Assembly (NCBI GenBank): GCA_965655095.1
Contig: OZ296648.1
Coordinates: 46,004,001 to 46,068,000 of the forward strand
DNA length: 64,000 nt
Reading direction: 5' to 3'
From: Haplodiscus bocki
Taxonomy: Eukaryota
Position numbers and translations under genes: made by a program. The first letter of the stretch is position 1; the number at the start of each line of letters is the position of its first letter. Shown piece after piece: positions 3,874 to 26,588 of the stretch. The notes below the pieces were generated by a model, which was given only the letters and a program-made list of their open reading frames with translations, had not been told where the DNA came from and did not search any database.

Positions 3874-4477
3874 ATGGATGAAATGGTTAAAGAAATGTTG
3901 TGAATGTGGAATTGAAAAATTAAATGAAGAGGTTTGTTTTAGGAAGTTTAGTCAAAAAAAACCTTCGTATACAATGTAGAAATATCGAGCAAAAAGAATG
4001 AAGAATAAATGATTATGAAAAAGTAAATCATTATATGAGAACTATAGTGAAAAAAAATAAAGAAAAAAAACAGATTTTCGTGATAAGAGAAGAAAAGAAA
4101 CAGATGTTAAATTTCGTTTAATTAATGATACAAGATGTCGTTACATCATGCACTGAATGGTAAATCGAAATTTTCTTCTACAAAAGATGTTTTGGGTATA
4201 GTTATTGTTACTTATAGAGAATGGATCGAGTTTCGATTTACACCTGAAATGAATTGGAGAAATATCGATATGGATCATGTCAGACCAATCGTTTGATGTA
4301 TACAATAGCGGAGAAAAGAAACAACATTTTAATTGGAAAAACACTCAACCATTACAAAAAGATTTTTATTTTCAAAAAGGAACTGAACTTAGATTTTTTG
4401 ATTATCAACTAGAACTTGTTGAAGCATATCAATTTATCAAAATAAATGAAGATGGATCAAACGAAGATTTTCATTGA
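3874..4477 (+). pseudogene. EndoVII/HNH-like nuclease with N-terminal Zn ribbon, copy 1
   Basis: KCCECG N-terminus, then EMNWRNIDMDHVRP / SFDV...HFNWKNTQPL...QKG. Confidence 0.65.
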
Positions 4478-5300
4478 TGACATATAGTAAACCTCCTGAT
4501 AAAATTTATGAAACTAATAAAATAGTATATGTTCACTTTGATGAAACATGGAGCATTGATTTAGCTGAAATGATTGAATATAAGGTTTCAAACAATATAG
4601 GTTTTGGGTAGATATTCATAATTATTGATACTTTTAGTAAAAATACTTGGACTATTCCTCTAAAAAGATCAAAATGCTCGAAAAAACTAATGAATTTTCA
4701 AATTTTACATCTACATCAGAACGAAGACCTATAAGAATAGAAATGGATGGGGGAGAGGATATTCAAATTTCTGTTTTTCAAAACTTTTTCAAAGGTATTT
4801 TTATACAACATTTTTCAGGATTTTCTGATAAAATCCTGTATTGCTGAAAGAGTCACTAGAACGATAGGGAATTTTTTTTGAAAAACCAGTGTTTGAAAAA
4901 GGGAATGCCGATTGGATAACCGAACTTCAGTCTATCATCAAACAATATATTATCACAATTCACCATTCAATGGAAAAGACTCCATTTCAAGCTAGTAAAA
5001 ACGCAAAATTAGACGTAGTATTTTCCAATCTTCAAGATCGAAGAAATAGAAAAAAACCAAAATTTAGATTAGGACATTTATTTCGTACATCTTATATTCA
5101 AAACGTGTTCTCGAGAAGTGAGAGTAGAATTTATATCTATGAGCTTTTTAGGAAAATCGAAGTCATTCATTATACTATACCATCATATAGAAGCATCTCT
5201 TGGCCAGAGCGATAGAAACAAAACTTAAAAAGATCACCAAAATTAACCTTAGAAGAATATATTTGAGTCAAGACAGAACTAAAACTATTTCAAACAAAAT
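4446..5300 (+). pseudogene. Retroviral-like (rve) integrase, copy 1
   Basis: WSIDL (D1), IIDTFSK, RIEMDGGE (D2), IAERVTRTI (E), IHHSMEKTP, PKFRLG. Contains stops and frameshifts. Confidence 0.9.
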
Positions 5301-5642
5301 AATCCCTTTTAAATGGAATTAACTGAAGACCAAAAGATTTGAAAATATGGTGTAAAACGTGGAAATTGAAATCGAAAAACCCTTCTTTCATTTTAATTTT
5401 AATTTACTTGTACTTCATGTGGTATAACGTTATATAACGAAAAAACAAACTTAGTAAATTTTCGAAAAAAAAGAATTTTGTCATCAGATTGAAATATGCC
5501 GGACACGAAATTTTTTGTTTTTCTATAGATGGTTATAAAAAAGCTCAATGTAAAGATCTTGCTCTTGGAAAATTAGATAGACAGAGAGTTTTAAAGAATA
5601 CATTCTTGTATCATTAAGAGAATAATATTTTCTGTTTGATAA

Positions 5643-6262
5643 ATGGCTAACCCAAATTTGAAAAATGAAGATCTAAGCTTTTTAAAAGTGACAACCGAAG
5701 GTGATGAATTTAAAGAATTAAAAATTAAAACGAAAAAACATGATCTTGAAAAAATATCAAAATCAATCAAAATTGATAATGAATGTTTTAGGAAGAAATT
5801 TAAATCCTCAAATAAAAAGAAAGATATATTGATTATCACAGAAATTTTCATGAGATCTGCTTCCACAAAAAACTCTAGTACAATAGCAATATTAGCAATA
5901 TTAAATCAAAAAGCAGGTGTTGTAATAACAACTAGTTCAGCTTCGTTAACTAGTAGTGCTATTTTAATCACGAGTGAATACATATCAAAATTGAAGATAC
6001 GATGTACAAGATTACAAGATTGGATTAAAGTAATTAATTTTGGATATGAGAGAACTTTGAACCAATTGATGGTAGATAAAAAACTGACAAAAAGCATGGG
6101 AATTGAAAAAGATAAAAAAACCAATATTGAGGCAAAACATCTGGTATTATGAAAAATACTCAAGTCAAGATTGAGGATCTATTTGGTGATAGTATAAGTA
6201 AAGATTCTGTTTCACCAAAACAAATAACTAAACATACTAATTTAATAGCCACAATAATGTGA
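5643..6262 (+). pseudogene. Polinton hydrophobic-hairpin protein, copy 2
   Basis: Duplicate of 2519-3141. Confidence 0.55.
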
Positions 6263-6534
6263 ATGAAAACTTTTGTATAAAAACAAATAAATTTATATCT
6301 AGAAGGAAAAAAGATTTCGATTTTCAACTGAGTGCTCCTCCTGAATGTGATTTTTAGTAATTAAATGAATTCAAGTTGAAAACAATCTTTTTGCTTGGGA
6401 GGTTGTCATTATTCTAAGAAAAACAACAAAATTGAATACGATGAGAGAAATCCTTAAACAAACAAAATTGTTGAAAAATTCAAGGGTATTTGTAGTATTT
6501 TTGGCGGTAACGAATCACAATTTTTTACTAAGTG

Positions 6535-6967
6535 AAAGACACGAGGAGAAGATTTCATGGAGCAAGGAAATGTAAAAGTAAACACTGTTCACCTATGTCA
6601 AATTCAGCATGATTTGATCTAAATAGTAATGGCGATAAACTTAAATTACATGATGTTTGACATAATCCAAAAGGCAAATGTCAGAAACAATTAATATTTG
6701 CTGTTTACTACTAAAGAGTTTAAACTCGAAGGAGCAGGGTTCAAAACTACAATGAGGATAATATTCAAAAGAAGTCAAAAAGCATGGAACTCTTTTCTTA
6801 AACCAGCAGTAAACATTCTAGCACCTGTTTTTGGTATGGCTGTCGCAGCAAAAAGCAAAATTCCACAAGTTTGTCAAGCTACTCCAAAAATTTTGAAAAA
6901 TATAACAGGAGGTACGATTTTAAGCTTAACTGACATGTGTGGGGATGGATTGAGAAAAGCAAGGTGA
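6535..6967 (+). pseudogene. Putative core protein, copy 2
   Basis: Identical 89-aa ORF at 6698-6967. Confidence 0.55.
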
Positions 6968-6995
6968 ACTAATTCAAATAAAGTTTGGTAATAAA

Positions 6996-7597
6996 ATGGA
7001 TGAAATGGTTAAAAAAATGTTGTGAATGTGGAATTGAAAATTTAAATGAAGAGTTTTGTTTTAGGAAGTTTAGTAAAAAAAAACGTTTGCATACAATGTA
7101 GAAAAATCGAGCAAAAGAATGAAGAATAATTGATTACGAAAAAGTAAATCATTATATGAGTACTATAGCGAGAAAAATAAAGAAAAAAAACAGTTTTTCG
7201 TGATAAGAGAAGAAGAGAAACAGATGTTAAATTTCGTTTAATTAATGATACAAGATGTCGTTACATCATGCACTGAATGGTAAATCGAAATTTTCTTCTA
7301 CAAAAGATGTTTTGGGTATAGTTATTGTTACTTATAGAGAATGGATCGAGTTTCGAATTACACCTGAAATGAATTGGAGAAATATCGATATGGATCATGT
7401 CAGACCAATCGTTTGATGTATACAATAGTGGAGAAAAGAAACAACATTTTAATTGGAAAAACACTCAACCATTACAAAAAGATTTTTATTTTCAAAAAGG
7501 AACTGAACTTAGATTTTTTGATTATCAACTAGAACTTGTTGAAGCATATCAATTTATCAAAATAAATGAAGATGGATCAAACGAAGATTTTCATTGA
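6996..7597 (+). pseudogene. EndoVII/HNH-like nuclease, copy 2
   Basis: Duplicate of 3874-4477. Confidence 0.65.
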
Positions 7598-8420
7598 TGA
7601 CATATAGTAAACCTCCTGATAAAAATTATGAAACTAATAAAATAGTATATGTTCACTTTGATGAAACATGGAGCATTGATTTAGCCGATATGATTGAATA
7701 TAAGGTTTCAAACAATATAGGTTTTGGGTAGATATTCATAATTATTGATACTTTTAGTAAAAATACTTGGACTATTCCTCTAAAAAGATAAAAATGCTCG
7801 AAAAAACTAATGAATTTTCAAATTTTACATCTACATCAGAACGAAGACCTATAAGAAGAGAAATGGATGGGGGAGAGGATATTCAAATTTCTGTTTTTCA
7901 AAATTTTTTCAAAGGTATTTTTATACAACATTTTTCAGGATTTTCTGATAAAATCCTGTATTGCTGAAAGAGTCACTAGAACGATAGGGAATTTTTTTTG
8001 AAAAACCAGTGTTTGAAAAAGGGAATGCCGATTGGATAACCGAACTTCAGTCTATCATCAAACAATATATTATCACAATTCACCATTCAATGGAAAAGAC
8101 TCCATTTCAAGCTAGTAAAAACGCAAAATTAGACGTAGTATTTTCCAATCTTCAAGATCGAAGAAATAGAAAAAAACCAAAATTTAGATTAGGACATTTA
8201 TTTCGTACATCTTATATTCAAAACGTGTTCTCGAGAAGTGAGAGTAGAATTTATATCTATGAGCTTTTTAGGAAAATCGAAGTCATTCATTATACTATAC
8301 CATCATATAGAAGCATCTCTTGGCCAGAGCGATAGAAACAAAACTTAAAAAGATCACCAAAATTAACCTTAGAAGAATATATTTGAGTCAAGACAGAACT
8401 AAAACTATTTCAAACAAAAT
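7566..8420 (+). pseudogene. rve integrase, copy 2
   Basis: WSIDLADM etc.; same disabling lesions as copy 1. Confidence 0.9.
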
Positions 8421-8432
8421 AATCCCTTTTAA

Positions 8433-9740
8433 ATGGAATTAACTGAAGACCAAAAGATTTGAAAATATGGTGTAAAACGTGGAAATTGAAATCGAAAAAC
8501 CCTTCTTTCATTTGAATTTTAATTTACTTGTACTTCATGTGGTATAACGTTATATAACGAAAAAACAAACTTAGTAAATTTTCGAAAAAAAAAGAATTTT
8601 GTCATCAGATTGAAATATGCCGGACACGAAATTTTTTGTTTTTCTATAAATGGTTAAAAAATAAATCAATGTAAAGATTTTGATGAAAGATATGAAGCTT
8701 TATCCACATTGAAGAATTAAAAAAATGAAAATTAAAAGAACTTTTCCGAAAAATATGAAGCTGTTAATTTAAATCCTGATTTAGAACAAAATTAGTACTC
8801 TAGAACAGTTGAAGGTATATATAAAATTGGACATGATTCTATTAGAGTATTCAAATGGTTAGCTTATTATGATAGACTTTTTGATGAAAATAAAATACCT
8901 TTTGATTTGATGGCGAGAATTTAAACTTGTCTAACTGAAATATCTTAATGATAAAAATTACGTAGAAGTAAAAAGCAAATGAAATTTTAATCATCCCACT
9001 GAAAATATTATATTAAGACTTAGAGTACAACCAAAATCTTTGAGAACCCAATATCAAGTTCAAGTAAACACTCAAATTAGGAAAAATCTGAAAGTAATTA
9101 AAAAAACTACTGATGAATTGATAGTTAAAAAGCATCCTAAAAAGAAACAGCTAATTTTTCAACAACGTAAAAAATAATCTACCAGATTGTCCTTTCTATA
9201 ACCGAAATAGTTGGCTTGAGTTTGATAAAAGATGGTTTTGTCAAATTTGTATATATATCATTACTAAACAAAAACATCAAATAGATTAAAAAATCTCATA
9301 GACAACATCTGAATTTTTCAACTAGATTACCATACGCTGATAAAAAGAATAAAGAGATTTATTTTAAAATGGTTAAAACTAAGTATGGTTCAACAGTAGA
9401 AATGCTTAACAAAATACAATTTTGAAATTAAAAACAAAATTGAAATTTTATCAAAATATAGATAATTATTATGAAGAAAGGAATTATCATAGGCAAAATG
9501 GTACTTTTCATTTCGCAGAACCTCCTTCCGACAGAAACGTTAACGGTGTTAGTAAAATTTATCATGAAGTATTCCTGTTAATGAAATTTTTACAAAAAAA
9601 ACCTCAGGTTAAAAATATGAAAAATAAATACTATGGTTTGTATTATGCTGTTCTTAAAATAGAAGTGGAAAAGAGAATATGGAAGATAAAAAAGATTAAG
9701 ATATAAAACCTTTTTATGATAATAATATTATGCCAAATTA
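8433..9740 (+). pseudogene. Two conserved hypothetical Polinton genes between integrase and pPolB
   Basis: EQN*YSRTVEGIYKIGH, LRTQYQVQ, FSTRLP and SKIYHEV..MKFLQKKPQV match 20037-21350(-) in element 2. Confidence 0.65.
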
Positions 9741-9841
9741 AATTATTGATGGAAATCATGATGCAATGTTAAAATAGAGAAGAATGAGATCTCAGATAAA
9801 TCAGTTCAAGCTTTTTATCCTATATAAAAAGAGACGCACAA

Positions 9842-12800
9842 ATGGAAAGCCGCAGATGTGATAATTGTAAAATTGATGTTCAATGAGCATCTTGTGCTAA
9901 ACCCTTCAGAAGTAAAAAAACTTTTAGGAGTTATGAAACGAAATGAAATGATTATTCCAGAATGGTTATTTCGAAAACTTATGGGATTTGAAAAAAAAAA
10001 TCTTTCACCTTTATGGGAAATAGCAAGATTTTATATCAAATTAGATGATAAACAACTAACTAGAGAACTGGCTACAAGGATGATAAATCCCTAATATTTC
10101 ACTGGAAGAGCAATAAAAATCGGATTTAATATAAAATTAGGTAGTCATCATATCAATCATTCTATTTCTGAAGTAATTATTGAATCAAATTATGTGGAAA
10201 TAGGGATTGAAACCATATATGTCAAAAAATCATGAAAAAGTGGGCTACTATTTATGCGAGATTAGTAAATCGATATAAATTTAAAAATAAAACAGTATTT
10301 TCAGCTCAATTCGTTAAACAGGGTGAAGATAATCAAGTATTAGAAAAAACTGATTTATTCCTTAATTTGCAAAATAATCAAAATGTAACTGAATCTGGTA
10401 TTGATAAAGATGATTTTAAATCTCCAGTAGAACGCCAAATTCAGAATCAAGAAATGAAATATAATGGATGGAGATTTGATGATATTAATGTAGAGACAAT
10501 ATAATTTTACAAAACTACTGAGATGAATGGTTCAAGTTATATAAAAAATCCTTTGAGAAGTTCTGCTATCTTGAAAATTCAAAATTGAGATAAGTATTGT
10601 TTTACTTGGTCGTCCTTAGCCTACATTCATCTTATAGCAGATTCAAAAAAAGTCATCCAACAAGAGTTTCATTTTTGAACAATTTTTTAATGAATTCAGC
10701 ATTCCAAGTTTCGATTTCACTAAAGAGCTTAAATGTAGTAATGTTTATATTTTTGAGATGTTAAACATTCTATCTATAAACATATTTGAATTAATTTTTC
10801 ATCAAGATAAAAACTAAAAGAAACATGAATTGATACCTATTGAAGTTAGCAAAAACGAATCAGATAGAGTTGTTGACTTGAAAAAATATAAAAACCATCA
10901 CGTTCTCATTAAAAAAATACACGCATTTTTAGGCAATCATAATTGTAATTATGTTTGCAGACAGTATTTATGTTCTTTTTCAAGTCAAAATGTACTAAAG
11001 AAACATAAACAACGTTGTGAACAACAAGACAAAAATAGCATTAGAACTTCAAATGATTCTCATCTTTTTTGGTAAAAGCACTTTCATAAGAATCCTTTAC
11101 ATTTTAAGATTTATGCAGATTTTTACACTGTAATTGAAATTGTTTTTTTTTGGTATAGGAAATACAACAACTTCTTTTTTTTTAAGTAAAATCCTGTGTG
11201 TAATGGATACTATAGTATCTGAATTGGATGATGTTTTAAAAAGTGGTTATTGTGAATCTCCTCTAGCATATGATAACGTAGATTGGTTTTGGATTAGGTT
11301 ATTAGATTAGAACTTAAAATGCTTTTTTATTTTAAAAACACTACTAATGAAATTATAATGAGTGAAGAAGATGAGACACATACCAATATTTGTAGATTTA
11401 GTCAGAACGAAATAACTGTTGACAAAATTAGAGATCATTGTCACTTAGCCGTAAATATAGAGGTCCAGCTCATGAATCATGTTATATAAACGTTACACAA
11501 AAACAAACCATTTCATAGCCCTAATGTTTCAGAATTTTTTTAATATTGATTGTCATCTACTTTTTAAAAAGCTAAGTGATAAAATGAATGATAAAGTAAA
11601 ATTTGATATTATACCTAAGACAAATGAAAAATTTTTTTCAGTAACATAAGTTTCTATTCGGTTTATTGACAGCTATAGATTTTTATCAAGCATTTTATAT
11701 TCGTTAATTAAAACGTTAGATAATGATGATTTTAGGATTTTGAAAGATCAATTTCCAAATAATTGGCAAGGTCTAAACAAAAAAGTAGCATATCCATTTG
11801 ATTTCTGTAAAAATATCAATGAATATCAAAAATCTGTTGATAATTCAAAAGGGAAAGACTTCTTCAGTTAATAAAAATGCGTATGCAAATGCTAATGAGA
11901 CAGAAATAACAAAAAAATTAATAATTTATTTGATATCAAAAACGGAAAAGACCTAACTAAATTATACTTAAAAAGTGATGTTACTTTCATAGCTGATGTT
12001 TTCGAAAAACATTTAAAAAATCAGTCAACGAATTTGATATCAAACCTCTGTATTGTGTAAATCTACCACGATATAGTTGGTTGTGTGAACTAAAATATAC
12101 TGATATTAAATTACAAACACTTCAAGATAAAGAATTATTTTAACATTAGAGAATACTATTAGGGGAGGTATCAGCTTTGTGATGGGTGACAGATATGTAA
12201 AATCAGATGATATTAAAAAGATAATATATAATGATATACTGATGCTATTATATTTTAGGTTTAGGCTATGATTGAATTTCTACCTTATGATGAATTTCAC
12301 TTTGATAAAATTGTTAAATTAGAAGCTATTTTGAATACTCCTGATGATAGTGATATTGGTTAATTCGTTAGAATTGGTATCGAATATCCTGATGAAATAA
12401 ACGAAAAAAAAACAATTTCAACTTGCTCCAGAAAATAAAAAAAGTAACCCTCATATACTTGCACCATATGTGAAAGGAAACAAGCTAAATACTTATACAC
12501 AATGAAAGAAATTGATATGTGATTGGACTGATAAAAAGAATTAGTGGATTCATCATAGAATGGTAATTTTTTATATTACACATGGGATGGTAATTGATAA
12601 AATACATGATATAATTTCATTTAAATAAAGTAAGTGGTTAGAGGGATATATAAACTTTAATACACAAAAGAGAAATAATACTAAAAATAAAGTTGAAAAA
12701 GATATCTACAAATTATTCGATACCATATTTTATGGAACAACAATGGAAAATGTTCGTAACTGAATAAAAGTGGAGTTTATTAGAAAAGATGATACTGAAA

Positions 12801-13462
12801 AAATTATAAACAACAATCAAAATTAGTTTTCAACAGAAGTCATAAATACTACACATATTTTGATAGTTATAATTTCAAACAAAACGAGGTTCTTATGCAC
12901 AAGCGTATTTACTTAGGGTTTGCTGTGTTAGAGTTGGTTAAAGTGTTGATGTATGAAACATAATATAATAAATTAACACCCTATTTTGGAGAAAAACTAT
13001 ACAAATACTTTATATGGATAATTTATGATGAGTGTGGATACAGAGGTTACTATATAAGACTTTAAAAATCTGGAAAACTTATTTGATTTTGATTTCAGCA
13101 ATATGAGTGAAAAAATTGAACTATTTAGTAAAAGAAACAAAAAATTTATGAGAAAACGTAAAATAGAGACTCCTAAAAATATTTCGGTTGATGAAGTTGT
13201 TTGTCTGAGAAGTAAAATGTATGCATTTAAATGTGCAGATGATAGTAAAGAAACTGAAACTTGTTTGTAAATCGTATTGAAAAAATACTAAATTTGACGA
13301 ATAAAAAAGTTGTTTGATGGTTAAGAATATCATTGAGAATGTGATATTTATATAATTTGATCTCCTAATCATGAAATATACCCCCAACGAGTAGAAAAAG
13401 CTATACTAACTGCATTTGATAATAAACGATGTTATGAAAATAATGTTAAACGTAAATTTTAG
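9842..13462 (+). pseudogene. Protein-primed family B DNA polymerase with EndoVII-like insertion and N-terminal Zn finger
   Basis: GWRFD, DKYCFTWS, IYADF, RDHCHL...YRGPAH, RFIDSYRFL, IRGGIS, FYGTTMENVR, IYLGFAVLEL, LYMD, CLRSKMYA, LTAFDNKR. Many frameshifts. Confidence 0.9.
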
Positions 13463-13481
13463 GGATGAAGATTATAATTGT

Positions 13482-13753
13482 ATGATAATGTATACTCATT
13501 CAGAAATTTCAACAAAAACTCCACTAGCCAATTTTCTAATCAGTGGAAAAGTAAAACTAACATTAAAATTTTTTTCAAGTATACCAAATATAAACAGAAG
13601 TTTCTAGTTTTCATTCCCAATACCGATAATGCATTGACAATTTTTTGAATAATATCACAAAATTGAGAATATGTAAATTTTTTTTGTAATGATGGAAATA
13701 ATCCTTTTCATAGAGCTGGTAGGAAATGGTTTTTAGACAATCAATCACCCTAG
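13482..13753 (+). pseudogene. Small hypothetical gene, homologous to 31695-32178
   Basis: IPIMH*QFF*IISQN*EYVNFFCNDGNNPFHRAGRKW versus FLWRNFFLNIANKRDYVNNCCSRPLNSFDRHCHEW. Confidence 0.5.
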
Positions 13754-13870
13754 AAAGTCTATGAAAAACTGTACGTAGTTTTATAATAAAAAATTGTTAA
13801 AACTTCATACCAGTATAAAAACCCAAACTTTCAAGTTCAACTCATACGAATTAAAAACAAAACCAATACA

Positions 13871-14235
13871 CATGTGCATTGACATACCTATAGTAAACTG
13901 AAAGCCCATCGGGAGTCCGTTCCTCTAAGAGTTTCCACACCAAGGATCATCCTTTTCAAGAACTGTGCATTTGGTGATTATCCGCCTACGGCATGTAAGA
14001 TATAACAAAGACTGGGGATACGTAATAAGAAGTGAACCCCAACACTTCAGCTATGCCTTAACTTCGTCAATGCTATATCAACTAATCCATAGGAGACGGA
14101 ATAGGAAGAGAAAAACTAGTGTATATATACATGGAAAGTATTGTCAACAAAGCTAGCATGTATATTTTGTGTTTTGTCGACATATTTGGTAGTGGTGATT
14201 TTTTCAGCCTCGCTTACAATGTAAAAGTGCACGTG
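13871..14235 (+). ncRNA. Candidate structured non-coding RNA of element 1
   Basis: Closing helix CATGTGCATT/AGTGCACGTG, several nested helices and a possible pseudoknot. G-U pairs favour the + strand. T-run at 14241-14245. Confidence 0.4.
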
Positions 14236-14327
14236 CAATATTTTTGTTAGTTCTATGTTTATGTAATTGTAAATATTTATAGCGAAATTTTTCATGTGTT
14301 GTGGAGAAAAAATAAGTCAGTTAAAAC

Positions 14328-14556
14328 GTTTTTTCTCATTCCTGTGTACACCCATTGGTAAAACCATTTGAAAATTTTTTGCAAAATCGTTTTTTTATTC
14401 TTGTGTACACCTTTTGATAGAACTATTTAAAACTTTTCTGCAAAAATGATTTTTTTTATTCTTGTGTATCCCCATTGATAATTTTTTTTTAATTTTTGCG
14501 TCTGCGTCCTTTTAGCCGTACAACTTGGCCGTACAATTTGGCTGGACAACGTAGCT
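14328..14556. repeat. Subterminal repeats of element 1
   Basis: Three ~60-bp units containing ATTC(C/T)TGTGTA(C/T)(A/C)CC, then three 13-bp GCCGTACAA(C/T)TTG-like units. Confidence 0.8.
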
Positions 14557-14723
14557 GTTGAATTTAATGTGGCTCGCGCGGCTGGCCTCATTTTTTTGTT
14601 TATATACTACTACTATAATCTTCCGACAAAAGCCGTTATGCCTCTCATTCGTTCATCGAAATGTTTTCAAAACCCGATTTTATTACAACACCAAACGGCC
14701 GCCATACTATCGCGGGTTTACAG

Positions 14724-14890
14724 CCATAGTCAAACATGCTGACCATGCTATGACATGGTATGATTATGGTGATTCATACTCACCATGGTTTGATCATGGC
14801 AAGATCATGGCATGGTCATCTTGACAAATAGCATGATCATGGTATGGCCGTCATGGAAAATAGCCTTACCATGTCATGGTGACCATAGTC
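14724..14890. repeat. CATG-rich interspersed repeat
   Basis: Dense CATG/CCATGG/TGATCA palindromes; the same texture recurs at 15320-15413, 33513-33544 and 36810-37225. Confidence 0.6.
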
Positions 14891-15032
14891 AATTTTATAA
14901 CGTAATCCGAACGCTATTTATCCATCCAACTTTGTTAAATATTGCCCAGGTGGTATTCAGTTACTTTTTAAAGTGGAATGTAAAGAAAAATTTACCAACA
15001 GAATTTACCCGAACAGAATTTACCAAAAATGA

Positions 15033-15065
<33 letters not shown>
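15033..15065. repeat. (TC)n microsatellite
   Basis: Direct reading. Confidence 0.9.
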
Positions 15066-15413
15066 AAATTTCTAAATTACCAAAAATAAGAAAAACCTGT
15101 ATTATATGTTATATTGAAACCGTTTTCCAATAAGAACTTGCTGTTTGGTATTTACTGAAGAAAACTCTAAGATTACCTGGAGTATTTTTTGTTCAATTTT
15201 GCTCACTCGCCACCCGAATATCGTGAGTTCCTCTAAAGCCAGTCAATTGTGCTTTATAATGGTATATGACACGAACTATTTGAGAAACATGGATAAAGTC
15301 CCTTTTTTTAAAAAAAAAACATGCAAAACAGGATGATCATACCATGATTATGGTATGAATCATGGAAAACATAGTAATCATACCATGATCATGCCATGAA
15401 TCATGGCGACCAT

Positions 15414-15553
15414 AATAATATAGGATATTCCGGATAATACCAGTAGCTCCTCACTATCGCTCGTCCCACTGATATTATCCGACAAACTCCACGCTCGCTC
15501 GTCACTTCGTTCCTCGCAGGCTTCCTTCCAGTCAGCCTCTTGCTCATATTATT
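15414..15553 (+). repeat. Left TIR of element 2
   Basis: AATAATATAGGATATTCCGGATAATACCAGTAG...TTCCAGTCAGCCTCTTGCTCATATTATT matches the reverse complement of 33373-33512 with scattered mismatches. Confidence 0.95.
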
Positions 15554-15585
15554 GGCTGCACCACTTACTTATGGTGATTTTCAAA

Positions 15586-15960
15586 ATCTGTGATCTCCAT
15601 GTCCAGAGCTTTCCAACGACGCATCACATGTACGTCTATCTGAAAGTTTTATAACCTCTACAAGTTTAAAGTTTAGGGTTTGAGATGATGTAACTTTACC
15701 TGTGTACGTCCGATCAACCTGATATTCACCATCTGTGATCTCCTAGTCAAGAGCTTTCAAATGATTTATCACATGTACGTTTATCTCACATTTTGTAATC
15801 TCTACATGTTTAAGATGTAGGGTTTGAGAGGGCATAAATTCACGCGAGTACGTCCGATCAAACTGATATTCATCATCTGTGATCTCCTTGTCATGAGCTT
15901 TCCAATAATGTATCACAAAAACATTTGTTTTAAAATTTTATAATCTCTACATAGTTAAAG
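15586..15960. repeat. Subterminal tandem repeat, ~145-bp unit x2.6
   Basis: ATCTGTGATCTCC at 15586, 15731 and 15875. Confidence 0.9.
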
Positions 15961-16149
15961 TACGTTTCCAACCGTTCCTATAACATAGCACCCAGTACAA
16001 ATTCCATATTTTTCCACATTCATAAAACATGTGAAGATTACGAAATCAGTGAATTTTTGAGCTACAGAAAAGTATAAAAAACCATGAGAAAGGTCTTGAA
16101 CAATGCCAATCAATGAATATAATTTCGCAAACACCAACTGAAACCTTAC

Positions 16150-16405
16150 TTTTGAAAAACCCAAAAAACCCTAAAAATAACCCTGAAGCTTAGTATGTCA
16201 ATGGAAAATTTTTTGATAAATTTGACAAATTATATATCGTTGAAAAGGTCTTCAAAAGTTCTTTTCAATGAAAATATTTTGGAGATCGTTGACTGAAACC
16301 ATACCATCAGAAATACCCAAAAACCCTGAAATTAACCCCGAAACTTTGTATGTCAATAAAAAATTTTGAATAATCTAGGAGTGTTATATATTGTTGAAAA
16401 GGTAA
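16150..16405. repeat. Subterminal direct repeat, ~155-bp period x2
   Basis: AAACCCT.AAA.TAACCC.GAA.CTT.GTATGTCAAT...TTATATAT.GTTGAAAAGGT at ~16166 and 16321. Confidence 0.8.
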
Positions 16406-16481
16406 GTAAATGTAGAACTCGAAAGTGATATTTTCGAATACATCAATTGGTCCTTATACATTTAAAAGTTAACAAATGTGT

Positions 16482-19400
16482 TTAAACGATTATATACTTA
16501 GGAAGCATATGACCAAACTCGCTTGGAGGTTCCCGTTTTAATTCAATTAGATTAGTTGAGAATTCCTTCTTCAGGTTGACTAGTTTATCACAATTATCAC
16601 ATAGAATATCTTTTTCACAATCAATACAATCTTTCATTTTTTGTAGAAATACAACTCCTTCACTAAATGATTTTTTCGAACTTAAAGGTACTTTAGCATT
16701 TAATTTATCACCATCTGCCATATTAAAACATTCTTTTCTATCTATTTTTTCACTAACAGAAGTGAAGCTTTTGAAGGTTTTGTGCTCGCCGATAACACCA
16801 AACATTTTCAGTTAAACAATATTTTTCCGGAGCTGGAAATAACCCACACCAAATGCCTCCTTGTCCATAATCGTTTTTACCTTGTAATCTATTCACACCA
16901 ACTAGTCCAGCCTTCTCTAATTTATCCCAATTTTTGTTTTCAATGTACAATGGGTCAGAATCTGTATAATAAACATCATTAGTATAAAATCCAACAACCG
17001 CGTGCACAAAATCGGTCATTTTTCGTTTACTGTTTGATAAAACGAAAGCACCTAGGTGAAGAGGCATGGTGTTCACTTTCTTAACTTCATCTTGTAAGCC
17101 TTCATCATCTTTCATTTTCACGATATAATTTCCAAAAATAGTTTTCTGAAAATCTAAAACGCGTTCATCATATTCAGTCATCATCCAATAATCAGATTTT
17201 CATCGGTAACTTTCTTCAATGCCTTTACGTATTTGCTCACCGTGTAAAGAATTCATAATTAATTTAACTAACAACTGCATAAAATCAATTTTTTCATCTT
17301 TTTGTTTTTGTCGTAGTTCAAAAAATTTATCAATTACTTGTTTAAAAGGAGATACTTTAAAATTTTCTCAAAAAGTAACGACTTCATAAATTCCTATTAC
17401 TTCTCCACCAATTTTAACAATTTTCTGGATATCAACGGATGTTAAAGTATCAATAATATAACCTTTGCGCATGGGGTTAATTTCCATTTTCTTTACTCGT
17501 TCTACAACTGGAATATGTTGAACGATAAGATTTTTAGGATTATAATACTTAATTGTTGAAACTGCACTTCCTTGAGTGAAAGTTGGATTATTGAATTTGT
17601 TAACGAGGTCATCATTCATATCTTTCGTGTAAGCATAACCAGTTTCTTTTTGCCATCGCTTTGCAATATCTCGCTTAAGAGAAAGCAGTACAGAGAACGT
17701 CATTTTTAACATAAACTAACCATTCATCTTTTTATCCTTATAATCATTATAATCAATTTCATCATGATTCATTTCGGTTTCTAATGATTCTTTTTGTAGT
17801 TTAAAAGTTCTTCCTAATTTCTTTAAGGAATAATTTAAATGAGTCATACCACATCTAAAATGGAAATGTTGAGGAATTTGTTTTTTTTTCAATATAACCA
17901 TTAAAAACTTTTCTTTCAGTAATACCCTTGCCGTTTTTATCACGCGAAAAGCGGGATANNNNNNNNNNNNNNNNNNNNNNNNNNNNNNNNNNNNNNNNNN
18001 NNNNNNNNNNNNNNNNNNNNNNNNNNNNNNNNNNNNNNNNNNNNNNNNNNNNNNNNNNNNNNNNNNNNNNNNNNNNNNNNNNNNNNNNNNNNNNNNNNNN
18101 NNNNNNTAATTACTGTTCAGATTTTGATGAAAATTGGTGAGTAGGGAGGCAATGATCATATGAAGACCGAGTTCAAAGTTGGGCGTGATCCGGATTGAAA
18201 TCCGGATCTGAGATCCGGATCAATGTTTCTCATAAACTACAGGTCGGATTTTGTTAGTGGGAAGATATAGCCAGTCATTCAGTGCAGTAGTGGTTCATAA
18301 TTAAATAAAACTTATTCCAACGATGACTTCCGCAAGGTTGGACGAGTGGTATATATGCGAGTCTCGGGAGCTGGAGATTGCGGGTTCGATCATCGGTGAC
18401 AACAGATAATTTTTCATTTTTGTATTTTGTTACTGTTCTGATCCGCGGGACAATTACAAAAATTTCGTGGTCACCGGGGATTCAACACAGAATCTTCATC
18501 TCCGGAGTCTCCCGTCTGAACCACTGCTATACACTGCCACAACATGACCAGAGAAATGGTCGTTTATAAATCTGTGTGGACGCAAAGACATAAAAAGGAT
18601 CAGCAATCTGAAATATCAACGACTGGGTTACAATCCAGTATATCGGCGGGTCCAAGGGCTTTCGCGGGATCTGCCCTCTCCGAGTCCCATTTTTTGCCTT
18701 GTTTATTATATTAACAATTCTTTTATCACAAGACAAATTATTCAAAACAATCCAGGTATCAAAACCAGATCCGTTGTCAGCATGAAGTTGTAAATTTTAT
18801 TCAAGAATTTTTTTTATTATCTTTACGTTCTTTTCCTTTAAGTTTCAAACAGAAATCTAAAGATTTTTCAAAACATTTATCAACATCAAAGACAATAGTG
18901 TCCTTTTTACATTTCTGTTTTTCATCTTGTGTTAAATTACGATTATATCTACCAGCTAGTTTACTTAATCGGTAAAAACAAAATACATGTTGTCCAGCCC
19001 TATCTGCTTTATGAGTTTCAAGATCGTAAACGACAAAATTAGTCAAATGTGATTCAATTTTTTTAGGAGTGTATATATATTCAAAATGAGATTTAACGTT
19101 TTCTTCCGTTATAAAATTATCAACTTTTTTAAAACTATATTTCAATTCTTTGATAGCTTGATTAAATTTAACACCTTCTGATTTCCATATTAAACAAGAA
19201 TGATTATTGTATGAAAATAAACCAATCTTTGTTTCTGTAGCTGATTATGAAAAGATTCTTTCACCATCATAATATGCTAAATTCAAATTGTTGGCTCTAC
19301 AAAAAGGTTGAATTCCAGCTTTAGTCTTTATATTTGATCGTCTTTTTTCATTTCGGATGAAGTCTAAATATTGTTCTTTATAATCTTCACCTGTTAAGAA

Positions 19401-19986
19401 ATTAATATATTCAACGAAACAATAGCCTTTAGTTGGTATAAAACAATTATTACCTCGATATTGAATAAATTCATATTTGAAGTCACAAACATTGCCGTAT
19501 TGACTTTTGTTTACTTTATTAAATTGAGGAGTTTTGATTATGTAAAAATAACCATTAAAATTAGCATCTTCCGCATCATAACTTTCATCAATTGCGTTAA
19601 TATAAGATTCATAATCATCAATATTGGTAAATCTAATATGAGTTTGTCGAATTTGATCACAAACTTTTAAACAACCAACCATTTCGAATTCACCAGTATA
19701 GTCTAACAATACTTCTTGTTTAATTTCATGCAAATTTTCATCAAAAACTTCTATTTTATTTACTTCTCCTAAAACACTTTCTTATTTAAGGGATTGTTAG
19801 CGTATTTAATTCTAATTAATAGATTTTCTACTTGTTTAGTTTTATCAATATTTTCAATTTTCTTTTTTTTTCAGATTTAATTTTGTTTAATAACAATTTC
19901 TGAGTATCAGCCATTTTAATTTTTCGTTCAGTTCTTCTTTTTCTACTTCTCGTTAATTTATTATTCTCGTTTTTCATTAATATCAT
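16482..19986 (-). pseudogene. Protein-primed family B DNA polymerase of a different clade from element 1 (interrupted, internally deleted)
   Basis: VVYDLET (ExoI), LHADNGSGFD (ExoII), SLKKLGRTF, YVKNDV (ExoIII), KLIMNSLHG (motif B), PLHLGAFVLSNSKR, YYTDSD (motif C), GKNDYG. Confidence 0.9.
17939..18703 (-). mobile_element. Non-autonomous DINE-1/HINE (Helentron-type) element, copy A, inside pPolB (contains an N gap)
   Basis: Reverse complement of 21744-22416. AACAAG end, subterminal inverted repeat ATC(C/A)CGCGAAA. Inserted in a T-run with no TSD; removing it restores NIIKNGKG. Confidence 0.75.
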
Positions 19987-20036
19987 TTATATAGCAAGAA
20001 ATATTTGAAATTTTTTTTATCAGATCTCAAATTTCT

Positions 20037-21350
20037 CTACCTCAAAAATGTGTCACGAGGGTTATGATTAGGTATAAAAAAATCATTAAATTTAATATAA
20101 ACATTTTCATACTGATTACCTACAATTTCTTTTTCATGTCTATTTTTAATAACAGTATAATATAAATCATAATAATTAATATTCATACTCCTAACTTCAG
20201 GCTTAGTTTGTAGATATTTCATTACCATCAATACTTCATGGTTAATTTTACTAGTTCCTTGAACGTTTTTAGCAAAAGTATCTCCATCCATCCTAATATT
20301 CATATTATCATAATATTTACTTATAATTTTATGAAATTTCAATTTTGTTTCTCCTTTTAATTCTCGTAATTTATTACTCATATCTTCTGTTGAATTATAT
20401 GTTGTGTTAACCACAGAATAAAATTTTTTTATTATCTATTTATTAGCTAATGGTAGTCTAGTAGAAAAATTATGATCTTGTCCGAGAACTTTTATATCAA
20501 ATTGATGTTTTAGTTTGTTAACAATCTATTCACAATTACAGAAAAAAGTAGCCTTTATCAAACTCTAAAAAATTGTTTTGTTTACAAGTAGGACAATTAG
20601 ATGGCCTAAATTAGGTTGTTGATAACTTGATTGTTTCTTTTTAGGATAATGTTTAACTTCTAATTTTCCTTTATTTTCAACTACTTTTTGCTTTCTCCTT
20701 ATCCGAGTCTCATTTTGAACTTGATATTGAGTTCTCAAAGGAGTTGGAGGATCTCTTTTTCGTAATATTATTTTTTCAGGAGGATGAATTCTATATAGAG
20801 GATCTTTTACTTCAACTTAATATTCTCCATTAAAATATTTCATTATTTAAAACTGTCAAAACACTAGACATTAAATCAAAGTAATTCAAATTAGCATAAT
20901 AAGACCTATAATATTAAATTAACCATTTCATTAATGTAATATATAATGTCCGATTTTGTAAACACCACTCGCTGTTCTTGAATAATAATTTTGTTCAAAA
21001 TCAGGATTTTCTAACATAACTTTATGTTTCTCCATCAAGATTTTGGTTATTTTTAATTTTTTATTTTTTAGTATTGGTAAAACTTCATATATTGTATTAT
21101 AATCATTACCTTCATACTATTGATGTACTTCTATGCAAATACAAATAAATTTTTACTCAGCATATTTTAATCGATTGATAAAATTAATTTTTTTCAGTTG
21201 TATTTTAGAGAGCCCTTGTTTTCTTTTGGTAAGTTGAAACCACACGAAAAACAAGTGAACACGTATTAGTATGGAAGAAGAGTATTTCGATTGCAGGGTT
21301 GACAACTTTTTCCATTTTTCTCAAATATTTCATTTTTAGTTAATTCCATT
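20037..21350 (-). pseudogene. Two conserved hypothetical Polinton genes
   Basis: Homologous and collinear with 8433-9740(+). Confidence 0.65.
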
Positions 21351-21359
21351 TGTTGTTTA

Positions 21360-22888
21360 TTATAATATTGAATTAAATTTAGTTTTTTCATAACTTTATT
21401 ATTTTCTCCTCAGGATAATATTTTTGGTAGCAATAGGTTTTCATTACATCTCTCGGTTAAATAGTCAATTCTATATGATGGTATGCGGTCAAGTATGATT
21501 TCTGTTATTGTGTATAATTTATAGCTGTAATGTGTACTGTCTCCTCTGCTAAAGACTTTCTTAATATCAACTGTACGAACTAATTGTCCCAGTTTAAAAT
21601 TTGGTTTTCCAATTTCTCTATTGTTTTTGGGATTTGAATAGACTTCTTTTTCATTTGATTTTTTAAAAGCCTGAAAATGAGTCTTTTTAATACTATGGTG
21701 AAGTGAATTATTATATTTCTTAAAGACAAATGGTAGTTCTATTAACAAAGAAGCCAAAAAATGGCACTCTGAGAGCGCAGATCCCGCGAAAACCCTTAGA
21801 ACCTCCGATATCCTGGATAGTAACCCAGTCGTTGCTATTTCAGATTGCTGATCCTTTTTATGTCTTTGCGTCCACACAGATTTATAAACGACCATTTCTC
21901 TGGTCATGTTGTGGCAGTGTATAGCAGTGGTTCAGACGGGAGACTCCGGAGATGAAGATTCTGTGTTGAATCCCCGGTGACCACGAAATTTTTGTAATTG
22001 TCCCGCGGATCAGAACAGTAACAAAATACAAAATTGAAAAATTATCTGTTGTCACCGATGATCGAACCCGCAATCTCCATCTCCCGAGACTCGCATATAT
22101 ACCACTCGTCCAACCTTGCGGAAGTCATCGTCGGAATAAGTTTTATTTATTTATGAACCACTACTGCACTGAATGACTGGCTATATCTTCCCACTAACAA
22201 AATCCGACCTGTAGTTTATGAGAAACATTGATCCGGATCTCAGATCCGGATTTCAATCCGGATCACGCCCAACTTTGAACTCGGTCTTCATATGATCATT
22301 GCCTCCCTACTCACCAACTTTCATCAAAATCCGACCAGTAGTTTATGACGAATCCTGCTAACAAACAAGCAAACAAACACACGAAGGCGATTGCAAACTC
22401 CCGATTTTTGCGGGATAATTAGCGTATCCTTTTTCAAACACTGTTTTTTTTGGTAAATTACGTACAGTTTTGATAACTCGTTCAGCAATTGAAGGACTTT
22501 ATCTGTGAATTGTGAAAAATGTTGTGTATATTTAGTTTTGGAAAATTTTGAAATATAATATTATAAAATTCAGTACCTCTATCAGAATCCATTTTGATAG
22601 GCTTTCGTTTTGATGTTGTTAAAATATTTGAAAATTCATTTGTGATAGTTTGACTATATTTATTTTTAAGTGGTATACACCAGAGAAATTTTGAGAAATT
22701 ATCGATTATAGTAAGTATGTATCTAAATCTTGTGTTATTTGAAATTTTATAATCCGAGAAATCTGCTAAATCAATACCCAGATTTCATCAATATGATTAA
22801 ATAAGGTTTTATTAGTTTTAAAATTTCTCTTAGGTGGTTTAGAAAATATCTCATCAATGAACGTTCTCGTTAAATCATTCTTGATCAT
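21360..22888 (-). pseudogene. rve integrase, interrupted by HINE copy B
   Basis: FIDEIFSKPP, HIDEIW, IIDNFSK, IAERVIKTV, YNNSLHHSIKKT, FKLGQLVRT, FSRGD. Confidence 0.9.
21744..22416 (+). mobile_element. Non-autonomous DINE-1/HINE-like element, copy B (673 bp)
   Basis: Starts AACAAAG with stem-loops GCCA-AAAAA-TGGC and CTCT-G-AGAG. subTIR ATCCCGCGAAAA (21781) pairs with TTTTTGCGGGAT (22405-22416). (ACAA)n microsatellite near the end. No TSD. Confidence 0.75.
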
Positions 22889-23452
22889 TTAATTAGATAA
22901 ATTGATACGCCTTTATGAATTCTAATTGATAATCTGAAAAAATAAATTCCGTAACCTTTTGCAGATGAGCATTTTTTAATGAGGGCTGAGTATTTTTCCA
23001 ATGGAATGCTTCCTTCAATTCGTCATTTTAGATACATCAAATAAACAAAAAGGCTTGACGAGGTCAGTTTCTGTGTTATCCCTTGTCATATCAGGTGACA
23101 TTTGCCATATCCACTTTTTACAAGTCTCAATATTAATACCTAAATTTTCTTTCGTTGAAGAAGGTTTTGATGTTCTTTTTAGAGCTTTTGAAATTCGACT
23201 TCTTGTTTTACGAATTAATTGAAAATTATTATCTGTTTAATGTCAATTCTTTTTTTAATCGTTAATTATTTCCTTGTTTTGTTAAGAATACATTTTCATT
23301 TTTCCTTTCTTTTCAGATTTATATACCCTTTGTTTAATTTTTGCTCACTGTGCACATTCGTTTTTCAATTTTTGATTGATGTTTCTAAAATAAAAGTCTG
23401 TTAATATTTTTAAAACTCTACAATCAGAGCATTTCTTCATCAAATCATCCAT
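22870..23452 (-). pseudogene. EndoVII/HNH-like nuclease with N-terminal Zn ribbon
   Basis: MDDLMKKCSDC..., RSRISKALK, DNTETDLVKPFCLFDV, AFHWKNTQP. Orthologous to 3874-4477. Confidence 0.65.
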
Positions 23453-23483
23453 TTTAATTTATAAACTTTATTTGAAATAATTT

Positions 23484-23910
23484 CACATTACTTTTAATCT
23501 CAAACCACGTCAGTGCATGTCAGTGAGACTCCAAATTTTTCGTCCAGATATACTTTTCAATATATTAGTTGTTGCTGCTCCAACTTGAGGATTTTTAGAT
23601 TTTGCTCCGACGGCCATACCAATTACCGGTGCCAGAGTGTCGATTGTTGGTTTTAAAACTTTATTCCAAGCTCATTGAGATCCCTTGAATATCTTTTTCA
23701 TAGTATTTTTAAGCCCATTAACTTCTAATTGAAATTGTCTAGGACTAAAGTTTTTTGCTTTTGGCAATTACATTTAAGATTATGGCACATATCATGTAAC
23801 TTCAACACAGTACATTTTTTATTCAAATTACACCATGTTGAATTACTCATATCTGATCGATGTCCGCGTTCGCATTTTGCACTTCTCACAAAATCTTCTG
23901 CTTTAGTCAT
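23484..23910 (-). pseudogene. Putative core protein
   Basis: KLHDMCHNLKCNCQKQ...AWNKVLKPTIDTLAPVIGMAVGAKSKNPQVG...SLTDMH*RGLRL. Confidence 0.55.
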
Positions 23911-24069
23911 TTACTTAGAGAAAATTTGGTTTTTAATACGACCGCAATTACTACAAGTTCCTTTGATAATTTTTACAACTTTTTTAATCTTATGGCTTTT
24001 CTTTTCATATTGATTTATACTATTAGTGTTACTATGATGTCTTCCACCAACACACCAAGTCTTTGTCAT
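23911..24069 (-). CDS. Small Zn-ribbon protein (52 aa)
   Basis: MTKTWCVGGRH...IKGTCSNCGRIKNQIFSK. Decayed homologues near 3240-3411 and 6366-6534. Confidence 0.6.
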   Translation of the reverse strand: MTKTWCVGGRHHSNTNSINQYEKKSHKIKKVVKIIKGTCSNCGRIKNQIFSK

Positions 24070-24164
24070 TTTTTGACTAAAAATCATATTCAGGAGGAAC
24101 ACTCGGTTGATACTTAGTATTGTTTTTCTTTTTAGGTTAAAAAATTTAAATTTAATATTCGTAT

Positions 24165-24775
24165 TTATATTCACATTATTTTGGCTCAAAAAAGTATTAA
24201 GTATAGTTATTTGTTCTTGACTAAAATTATCTTTACTTATAACATCACCAAAAATATCTCCCGCCTTAGAACTAGTATTTTTCAAAAGTCCTTTTCTTTT
24301 ATCAATGTAATGATTATAAATCTTCTTCAATTCTTGTGATTCCTTTTCATCAATTTTTTTATCTACCATCGACTGTTTCAAAGTCTTTTCATATGACAAA
24401 GTAATTACTTTTATCCAAACTTTCAATTTTGTAATTTTAATTTTGAAATATATTCATTAGTGATTAAGATGGCAATACTGGTTAATAAAACGGTACTACT
24501 TGAAAAAATATTACCTGCACCAGGATTAATCAAACCCATCTTTGAAGTACCTATTATCGATACTGACCTAATCAAAGTTTCAGTGACATTTAATATTACT
24601 TTCTTTTTATTTAAATTTTTATACTTTTTTTATAATATTCATTATCAATTTTAAGACTCTTTAGAATATTTTCATGATCGTGTTTTTCCGTTTGATTTTC
24701 AAGTTTCTTTTCATCATCTCTCGTTTTTATTTTTAACAGTTCTGTTTCGTTGCTTATATTCGGGTATGTACTCAT
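24165..24775 (-). pseudogene. Polinton hydrophobic-hairpin protein
   Basis: EKHDHE..LKSLKIDNE...GTSKMGLINPGAGNIFSSSTVLLTSIAILITNEYISK...KQSMVDKKIDEKE. Confidence 0.55.
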
Positions 24776-24996
24776 TTATTATTTAGAAATTGTTCTTCTA
24801 ACAAATCCATTGCAACAATCGCTTTCAAGGTGCGTTGTCTATGTATTTTATCCAAAGCAAGGTCTTTTACAATATTTATCTCATCACCTGTATATTTACT
24901 TTGTTTTAACATATCTGGTTCTATTAACGATAGTAATAATATTATCGATCATTCATATCTTATATCTTCAAACAAGTTTGAGAAGTACTGTTCCAT

Positions 24997-25236
24997 TTAT
25001 TTATTCAGAAATCTTTCAATGATTACTTCTTCTTTTTTTATATAGTTAAGGTATTGTTTATATTCTTCTAACAAATTAAATTTAAATTCTAAAGATAGCA
25101 GATTAATAACAATTTTACTAAAACCAACTTCTTTTAATAATTTTTTATTATCTTTAATTGAAAACATTAATGAAACTATTTTTCTATAATCAAGTATTGA
25201 TTCAAACAAATCTTTAAAATAATTAACATTATCCAT
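24997..25236 (-). CDS. Hypothetical Polinton protein (79 aa)
   Basis: Intact ORF; decayed homologue at ~2050-2298(+) (LFESITD*RKIV). Confidence 0.6.
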   Translation of the reverse strand: MDNVNYFKDLFESILDYRKIVSLMFSIKDNKKLLKEVGFSKIVINLLSLEFKFNLLEEYKQYLNYIKKEEVIIERFLNK

Positions 25237-25261
25237 ATAAGACTCACAATTGTATTTGTTT

Positions 25262-26588
25262 TTAATATACAGAATGTGTTAATGTTACCTTACTAAAACA
25301 CATATCAGCATGGGCACTATCTATCTTATCAAATATTAATTTAATACCATAGTTCTCTACAATGAAATCTAAATTTAAAAATGTCCAATCAGTTGAAGTT
25401 TCACTATATTGAGTATTTTTAGCGTTAGCATATTGACTATTCCAAAAGTTATCGTCCAATAACAATTGAATTCTAAAGCGTCCCATTGATTTAGTACCAC
25501 CCGCTGAAAATCTGTTACAATAGAATAGTATATTACTAATTTGAATGATGTCTGTTCGTTCGAAAGAAACAAAAACGTTTTCTCCGTTATTATTTGAACT
25601 TGTCTCTATATACATAAAACTATCATCAATCGATAACAAGCTTTTTGCTCTAGAATCGCCCGTTAGACAGTTTGTCTTGGTTGATTTTATAAAGTTTTGT
25701 ATTTTACCATTGTTCTTTTTATCATTACATTTAATATTCCATCGTTGTGATAGGTATCCTCCTATGTTAGGAGTTTTAAGATTTGTTGTTTCAGTTATTT
25801 GTGTTTTATCATGTTTAGTAAGATTATATGTTTCATTTCCAACAGATACTATGAGATAGTTTTGTAGTGTTTGATTAAATCTTAAAATACTATATTTATC
25901 TAAATCACAATCGATATATTTTTTATTTGCTAATTCATTATCTGAATTGAGATTCCTTTTAACAGTGATACTATCTAAATTTGTTAATTTATTATCGTTG
26001 AAATCATTATTTTGATTATTTTTTACCAAATCTATTTCTTCATTATAAAACGACAATCCCATGTCTCTTCTGTTTCTTTTATTATCACTATGAAATTGAT
26101 CTACATAAGCTTTTGTTATTACTTCATTGTCATTTCCAGCTGGTTAATTCAAAGTAATACTATTTATATTAGTTAAATTAATTTTATTAAAATCGTTATC
26201 TTGATTAATTCTAACTAACGAAGATTCGTCTGCAGTATTATCAACATATAACTTAGCTGTTAAATGAGAATCAATTTGAGGTAAATGATTAACTTGAATA
26301 GATCTTGCGTTGGTAATATTTCTACCATTCAGATCTATATGTGCGGTGTTTTTCAATAGACTTGGATCATTGAATAAATTATCAACATAAAATTTTACTA
26401 CAAGCTTCTCTAATACTAAAAGGATCTGGTAAATTTTTAATTCTGTATTGATTTTTTAAGTCAATGTCTTCTTCTATATTAGATTCTATATAAATAGTTC
26501 TCAGATAAGGTTTTTGTACAAATGGACTAGTATCAATTTTGTTATCAGATTTATTTGAGTTACTATTACCAAATACATTTATCGGCAT
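25262..26588 (-). pseudogene. Putative fibre/spike-like virion protein (three fragments)
   Basis: Repeats ending TAKLYVD, ITKAYVD and ANKKYID, preceded by N-D-F-N-x-x-x-(L/I)-T-N; beta-rich C-terminal domain. Confidence 0.55.

Follow-up and report, generated by a model that had tools for sequence, protein, structure and literature searches.

How one set of genes comes to carry two DNA polymerases, and what travels with a polymerase when it is exchanged, are questions raised by a stretch of the genome of Haplodiscus bocki (GCA_965655095.1, 1.5 Gb; labelled G000 here). This stretch, hereafter the window, comprises the 64,000 nucleotides (nt) from 46,004,001 to 46,068,000 of contig OZ296648.1 (C1 here) and holds two decayed Polintons, inserted independently, which lie 802 nt apart with their polymerase ends facing (tail-to-tail). 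Element 1, on the forward strand, carries a type-A protein-primed DNA polymerase B (pPolB) and AGT-type ends; element 2, on the reverse strand, carries a type-B pPolB and AAT-type ends. The genes that they have in common are termed the chassis. The explanation that we consider likely is that the genome houses a single large Polinton population that recombines freely and has two unrelated pPolB cassettes that can replace each other, each with its own ends.

Element 1 occupies positions 1–14611 of the window and begins 5,235 nt upstream of it on the same contig, where its ATPase, minor and major capsid genes lie; its extent was set by a terminal inverted repeat (TIR) match, a target-site duplication (TSD) and an ATPase match. 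Element 2 spans 15414–33512 and is delimited by its TIR and TSD. The polymerases start at 9842, from which an N-terminal homolog aligns, and at 19986, the type-B ATG (full-length type-B homologs align from 19983). In a sensitive blastn search, 50–9828 aligned to 27193–19986 at 64.6–66.5% nucleotide identity and the alignment stopped at the polymerase start; collinearity also extends upstream of the window. Comparison of the two polymerase regions by tblastn gave no match at E ≤ 0.01. A collinear chassis with polymerases that cannot be aligned had been described from the sequence alone (the sequence-only reading), and all the motifs quoted there for both pPolBs are present in the six-frame translation. 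The same reading took the elements for sisters, which does not hold: in the sample of copies described below, their identity per chassis segment (63–71%) is below the median in seven of seven segments, and each has at least three relatives nearer to it than the other element.

The type-A pPolB of the window (9842–13460, + strand), recognised by its motifs, has an EndoVII insert and is interrupted by many stops and frameshifts; intact genomic homologs match PF02945. The type-B pPolB (PF03175; 16485–19986, − strand), located by tblastn of P0015 and P0099, lacks about 167 codons near 17647, is broken by a 600-bp insert and frameshifts, and contains a stretch of N. Uninterrupted natural open reading frames (ORFs) of both types occur in the same genome. 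Those of type A (1216 and 1178 aa) have exonuclease and polymerase motifs, match EndoVII PF02945 below the cut-off (E 2e-4 to 6e-4) and have no direct match to PF03175, which the type-B homologs (1082–1083 aa) match at E 1.4e-17 (P0040) and 3.5e-14. Within either type such ORFs are 86–87% identical, and the major capsid proteins (MCPs) of one A and one B copy are 71.8% identical. Between types, the best blastp score is 40 bits, and the global identity of 27.9% falls within the 22–33% given by five shuffles. In a tree of 16 rows, type B groups with nine outside pPolBs and the type-A branch has a length of about 2.5 changes per site; among the 150 best relatives of B, none is nearer to A. Because identity between the types is at shuffle level and B groups with outside pPolBs, the two polymerases are, as far as their sequences tell, unrelated members of different lineages on a shared chassis, as the sequence-only reading had supposed, and not sisters at a depth similar to that of the MCPs.

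Both types are abundant, with 3474 and 5971 first-look candidates, figures that are not copy numbers. The atlas neighbours of type A are EndoVII-plus-PolB clusters (PF03175 score 0.97), mostly arthropod where a source is recorded, while type B has PF03175 clusters as neighbours, in which Preplasmiviricota and Parabasalia are recorded; the second of them lists Parabasalia on the basis of four members with a phylum. The B lineage is rare, with 343 representatives at E ≤ 1e-30 and a nearest full-length outside relative at about 40% identity; its nearest named relative is from Macrostomum lignano (34–36%). Scans of viral contigs found no relative of the type-B polymerase or MCP, a metagenome scan for relatives returned a single 2.2-kb contig, and a further homolog search yielded close type-A relatives only. 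Type B had also been likened to bidnavirus polymerases. A structure model built from a 50-row alignment (pLDDT 83.6; 30.7 from the single sequence) has fold matches to pPolBs at E 5e-26, and the top three are indeed densovirus-labelled PolBs; these share only 12–13% identity with it (TM 0.45–0.52), in a weak ranking at 12–14% identity where tectivirus, adenovirus and adintovirus PolBs lie within three orders of E. We take an EndoVII insert to be a mark of Beta/Group 1 pPolBs. By the definitions of Starrett et al. (PMC8502044), type A fits Beta/Group 1 and type B fits Alpha/Group 2: Beta is set at less than 30% identity to the pfam03175 type, and type A combines no PF03175 match with shuffle-level identity to B. 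Both A and B have Cys and His motifs at vOTU-like positions, a reading that follows PMC11161782.

The relation of polymerase to chassis was followed across 38 further 20-kb stretches of the genome, of which 20 were chosen by the element 2 MCP, 10 by polymerase B and eight by the element 1 MCP; the type-A copies used for the trees were drawn from the two sets selected by MCP. Together with the window pair, 37 of these 40 could be typed (18 A, 19 B), and three with no polymerase in range (L079, L123 and L125) were excluded from the trees. The 20 nearest-MCP relatives of element 2, itself type B, comprise 15 A, four B and one without a polymerase; the eight nearest to element 1, itself type A, comprise four B, two A and two without. 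In the set chosen by polymerase B, the MCP (present in nine of 10) is 57–84% identical to that of element 2. On DNA trees of eight chassis segments (34–36 rows) polymerase type changes 7–11 times, against means of 11.6–12.3 after shuffling, which contradicts the single exchange event proposed in the sequence-only reading; for the gene adjoining the polymerase, the observed number is equalled or bettered in 214 of 500 shuffles. Approximately unbiased (AU) tests reject the B copies as one group in four of the five segments tested, the integrase among them (MCP, p 7e-6; integrase halves, p 0.001 and 0.010; gene before the polymerase, p 0.004). Chassis genes (capsid, protease, integrase and their neighbours) and polymerase type have thus been reassorted recurrently, and the integrase is linked neither to polymerase type nor to end type.

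The chassis segments are also decoupled from one another. Age-corrected Spearman correlations are 0.64 between minor capsid protein and MCP, 0.31 between MCP and protease, 0.29 between minor capsid protein and protease and at most 0.22 in the other 18 pairs, similarity falling with distance. Separately, the MCP has at least four deep lineages (57–86% nucleotide identity to element 2) on the same chassis (L093–L112), and capsid alleles therefore appear to have been exchanged as freely as polymerases.

The ends behave differently from the integrase. In the window, the AGT-type end of element 1 at 14611 closes a TIR of 1175 bp (13440–14611 on the right, with 59-bp repeats at 14323–14481 and the type-A terminal motif, against −4078 to −5235 on the left; 89.5% identity), and its TSD matches at five of six positions. 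Element 2 has AAT-type ends and a TIR of 141 bp (15414–15554 against 33373–33512, the left copy; 88.7%), flanked by a perfect 6-bp TSD (15408–15413 and 33513–33518). That the termini differ had been noted before, together with the suggestion to test whether terminus type follows polymerase type across the genome, and it does. Among 75 distinct copies, 53 could be scored for polymerase end as well as terminal motif (17 have no motif in range and five no polymerase end); at the right end, 38 are A with A and 15 are B with B, with no mixed copy (53/53), and each of the 12 left ends located in typed copies agrees with its polymerase. The terminal motifs had no match in 500 shuffles, and the pairing gives a Fisher p of 1.6e-13 for copies that are not independent.

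The type-specific part of the ends is short. Between polymerase stop and terminus, 45 of the 53 copies contain a stretch of 60 nt or more that is also present in the other type (up to 87% identity over 713 nt), the eight without one including both window elements, yet no cross-type block starts less than 157 nt from the end in any of the 53. The interiors of the TIRs are therefore shared by both types, type specificity being confined to the tips; in element 2 the corresponding terminal region, a putative replication origin, is 15414–15570 (− strand). Each cassette is paired with its own outer ~160 nt at both ends. The tips themselves are homologous without gaps: of 25 positions that are invariant within each type, 17 carry the same base in A and B (p 1e-4; sliding one end along the other gives no more than 10), among them the first A, the T in every triplet, and CCAG at 27–30. 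The subterminal repeats of element 2 (15575–16403; units of 144 bp and ~155 bp) are, genome-wide, not type-specific.

Two side observations concern the architecture of the ends. In 29 of the 38 type-A right ends (e.g. L057/L058, L077/L078 and L025) the terminal motif recurs in inverted orientation 278–540 nt inside, and in two of the copies that were folded the outer ~310–330 nt make up a near-perfect hairpin, with z-scores of about −19 and −24 relative to mononucleotide shuffles; the 15 type-B ends have no such arrangement, and neither has element 1 of the window. Type-B TIRs, for instance at 15470–15530, have GCTC-type repeats after a short hairpin, which we presume to resemble parvovirus Rep-binding elements.

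The junctions of the cassette were located on both sides of the polymerase. Upstream, sequence common to both types (located in 17 A and 14 B rows, one B row being misplaced) continues to a TATA-like motif at 9820–9829 (+ strand), the last shared sequence before the polymerase ATG. Downstream, a shared small ORF comes immediately after the polymerase stop in 28 of the 38 A copies and six of the 15 B copies, is elsewhere in two A and four B copies, and is absent from eight A and five B; element 2 has its copy in the left arm (32947–33085, + strand; 86% over 139 nt). Because shared DNA bounds the polymerase on both sides, the exchanged unit is the polymerase ORF from start to stop, between a shared promoter and the shared small ORF. 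The sequence-only reading had the polymerase, TIRs and subterminal repeats exchanged as one unit, a view that does not survive the common spacer and these two junctions.

A single ancient non-homologous replacement would have introduced the second polymerase type, and homologous recombination in the shared chassis genes would have produced the many reassortments of both types since. In protein-primed replication, a terminal protein and the polymerase initiate at the terminal repeat. The likeliest reason for the persistence of the end pairing, one that we hold as readily as we doubt it, is that each terminal protein and polymerase primes only on its own end, a mismatched end being rewritten through a panhandle or lost. 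A role for panhandles in restoring homology between ends has been put forward, with the note that direct evidence for them is lacking (PMC11886824); given initiation at the terminal repeat, a recombinant with a non-cognate end could therefore be rewritten from its usable end. The shared integrase would recognise those positions at which the two ends agree. A fuller version, tentative and a little short of an even chance in our estimation, is that each cassette needs its own origin (AGT or AAT repeats and the outer ~160 nt), that one integrase pool reads the 17 common positions, that the B end was remodelled from an A end after the polymerase arrived, and that mismatches are corrected through panhandles. 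Our guess that B arrived second is made because B is rarer and (AGT)2 is the commonest end motif of vertebrate Mavericks (PMC8097293).

Several points weigh against one recombining population with two end-bound cassettes. The AU test for the short protease is not significant (p 0.063). MCPs are still clustered by polymerase type (matched by one of 500 shuffles), in part a sampling effect. The copies are decayed and the trees star-like with low support, 2–11 of 31–33 branches being starred. The 53 end-typed copies are not independent events, and 22 of the 75 copies are untyped at the end. The clade names given to A and B rest on Pfam, the atlas and published descriptions, in a tree without named reference polymerases, and the direction of the first replacement is a guess. 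Finally, patchwise gene conversion would yield the same pairing without any functional specificity.

This last point is the core of the strongest rival, in which gene conversion or double crossover moves patches of chassis DNA between two lineages, the islands of polymerase and termini are rarely spanned, and no polymerase needs its own end. Such passive linkage would give 53/53 and 12/12 without selection; similarity between chassis segments does decay with distance (Spearman 0.64 for the minor and major capsid genes to ≤ 0.22), and perfect TSDs are kept in seven of 11 two-ended copies. However, some B copies have strongly diverged MCP alleles (57–68% nucleotide identity) and each of the two main MCP clades contains A as well as B, and large, poorly homologous blocks therefore do move. 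The polymerase, moreover, is flanked by shared DNA and convertible, yet mismatches with the ends number zero. We regard passive linkage as a serious possibility that falls somewhat short of being probable.

Far less probable is a single transfer, in which a foreign Polinton donated polymerase, terminal protein and whole TIRs as one block, the two families having evolved apart since. The tracking of polymerase type by end type, and the differing TIRs and subterminal repeats of the window, are as this history would have them, but AU tests reject separate chassis clades in four of five segments, the spacer is common to both types, the shared ORF stands 3′ of the stop in 28/38 A and 6/15 B copies, and the two kinds of end align in register as homologs. 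That one polymerase lineage merely diverged fast, or that decay or misassembly of the window created the difference, can practically be dismissed: both window polymerases are heavily broken and pol B contains N, but elsewhere in the genome both types are abundant and occur as uninterrupted ORFs, alike within type and at shuffle level between types, and of the 150 best relatives of B not one is nearer to A.

The remaining features of the window complete the two elements. With their pPolB, rve integrase, TIRs and TSD, and with a double jelly-roll MCP and an ATPase in sibling copies, both are Polintons/Mavericks; their lengths (19.8 kb for element 1, 18.1 kb for element 2) lie inside 13–25 kb, and TIRs and a 6-bp TSD are present. 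Element 2 itself is without an ATPase, the DNA of which is present in 36 of the 40 stretches; in sibling copies this A32-like ATPase matches PF04665 below the cut-off (E 2e-4). Among 28 ORF pieces of the window, the rve integrase alone scored above the curated Pfam cut-off. In element 2 it lies at 21100–22830 (− strand; PF00665, E 9e-9) and is broken by a 600-bp insert, and the integrase of element 1 is collinear with it. The MCP (27207–28247, − strand) is assigned through homologs in other copies that match PF21738 (E 1e-12 to 2e-7), the window piece having no Pfam match. A putative minor capsid protein (28743–29447, − strand) is placed by position. Motifs in the translation, together with position, lead us to presume that the putative protease fragment at 26649–26996 (− strand) is adenain-like. 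Neither this protease nor the minor capsid protein has a Pfam match in window pieces or sibling copies.

In element 1, a 3.1-kb tandem duplication (2428–8682, + strand; 2428–5561 against 5552–8682, 97.5% in a self-blast) includes the integrase region. It and the repeats of L093 resemble MCP-containing tandem arrays elsewhere in the genome, which have periods of 2.7–4.3 kb (G000 C1:16451393–16470575, C4:32023833–32077401 and C2:17637938–17644435). The host spacer between the elements (14612–15413) has CATG-rich repeats and a TC microsatellite and ends in one copy of the element 2 TSD. The insert in the type-B polymerase is a host repeat of 600 bp (18108–18708) with an inverted second copy in the integrase (21743–22343, 96.5%), and collinearity resumes on both sides; an inversion between the copies was ruled out, gene order and strand remaining collinear. 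No special meaning was read into the tail-to-tail arrangement, a judgement made without a formal test: the TSDs are separate and the family is abundant. Further along, 39971–53905 contains near-identical 2.9-kb tandem units, 1.7-kb copies (99.5–99.8%) and a 649-bp inverted repeat around a stretch of N, which represent recent duplication or an assembly artefact and are unrelated to the Polinton finding.

Three observations concern ORFs. In element 2, TAAATG stands at many ORF starts (e.g. 28247, 19986, 31343, 32927 and 23910); over 11 elements it occurs 249 times in sense against 170 expected and 149 times in antisense against 109, with seven against 8–10 in host DNA. This context we take to resemble a poxvirus late promoter, by which analogy the enrichment may hint at helper-virus transcription. 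A small ORF with a DHxxP motif lies upstream of the integrase (7249–7594, +; 22850–23236, −) and has no Pfam match; we liken it to HNH homing endonucleases. Exchange could be promoted by this ORF or by the EndoVII insert of polymerase A. In L123, an ORF of 992 codons with an endonuclease-like N-terminus (517–3492) stands in place of that copy's polymerase, and its motifs suggest that it is probably a long interspersed nuclear element.

Exchange of Polinton polymerases has been described before. In nematodes, Jeong et al. (bioRxiv 10.1101/2023.08.22.554363) report pPolB1 and pPolB2, 16% identical, on near-identical chassis in one genome, the pPolB2 class being one that also has Metamonada, oomycete and mollusc members. 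As here, there are two distant pPolBs, interspersed chassis trees and an endonuclease insert in one class. In nematodes, however, both classes belong to Group 2 and TIRs are highly conserved between them, whereas H. bocki has type-specific ends and mapped junctions on both sides, and its pair would seem to be Beta/Group 1 against a PF03175 type. Among adintoviruses, Starrett et al. (PMC8502044) distinguish Alpha (pfam03175) and divergent Beta PolB classes, match typical Alpha PolB to bidnavirus PolB at E ~1e-60, and read the presence of Beta-class virion genes on some Alpha PolB contigs as horizontal transfer. The two divergent classes on exchangeable virion modules are as here, but transfer was inferred across hosts from protein clusters, and the accessible text reports neither recurrent exchange within a genome nor a link to end sequence. 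Vertebrate Mavericks (Barreat and Katzourakis, PMC8097293) have the end motifs (AGT)2, (AG)3 and (AC)3A; (AGT)2 ends with a 6-bp TSD are as in type A, while the accessible portion lists no (AAT)2 motif like the type-B end and reports no link of ends to polymerase class.

Barth et al. (PMC11296320) proposed that replicase and terminal repeats form a unit, the replicative end module, with replicase and integrase classes paired and replicase mosaicism widespread, and a study of Polisuviricotina mosaicism (bioRxiv 10.64898/2026.10.13.758929) found replicases widely reassociated with capsid modules. The unit of replicase and terminal repeat, and the reassociation of replicase with capsid, are seen here too; these papers expect replicase and integrase to be paired at the ends, whereas here the integrase is unlinked and the unit consists of three separate islands. 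The polymerase swap itself is thus already published. A published link of end motif to polymerase type within one population was not found in a search that excluded most subscription papers, Repbase and supplements (e.g. the TIR tables of Jeong et al.), and strict pairing of cassette and ends with an unlinked integrase appears to be new, a further detail beside the swaps known from nematodes and from Alpha and Beta adintoviruses. In such a genome, Polinton families cannot be delimited from a tree of capsid, integrase or polymerase by itself. With the integrase unlinked and the polymerase fully linked to end type, the population separates two roles in end recognition that had been argued from gene order (PMC11296320; bioRxiv 10.64898/2026.10.13.758929), and the division of the ends into shared and type-specific positions yields base-level predictions for that recognition. 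If the explanation is true, H. bocki offers a natural reciprocal experiment on Polinton ends.

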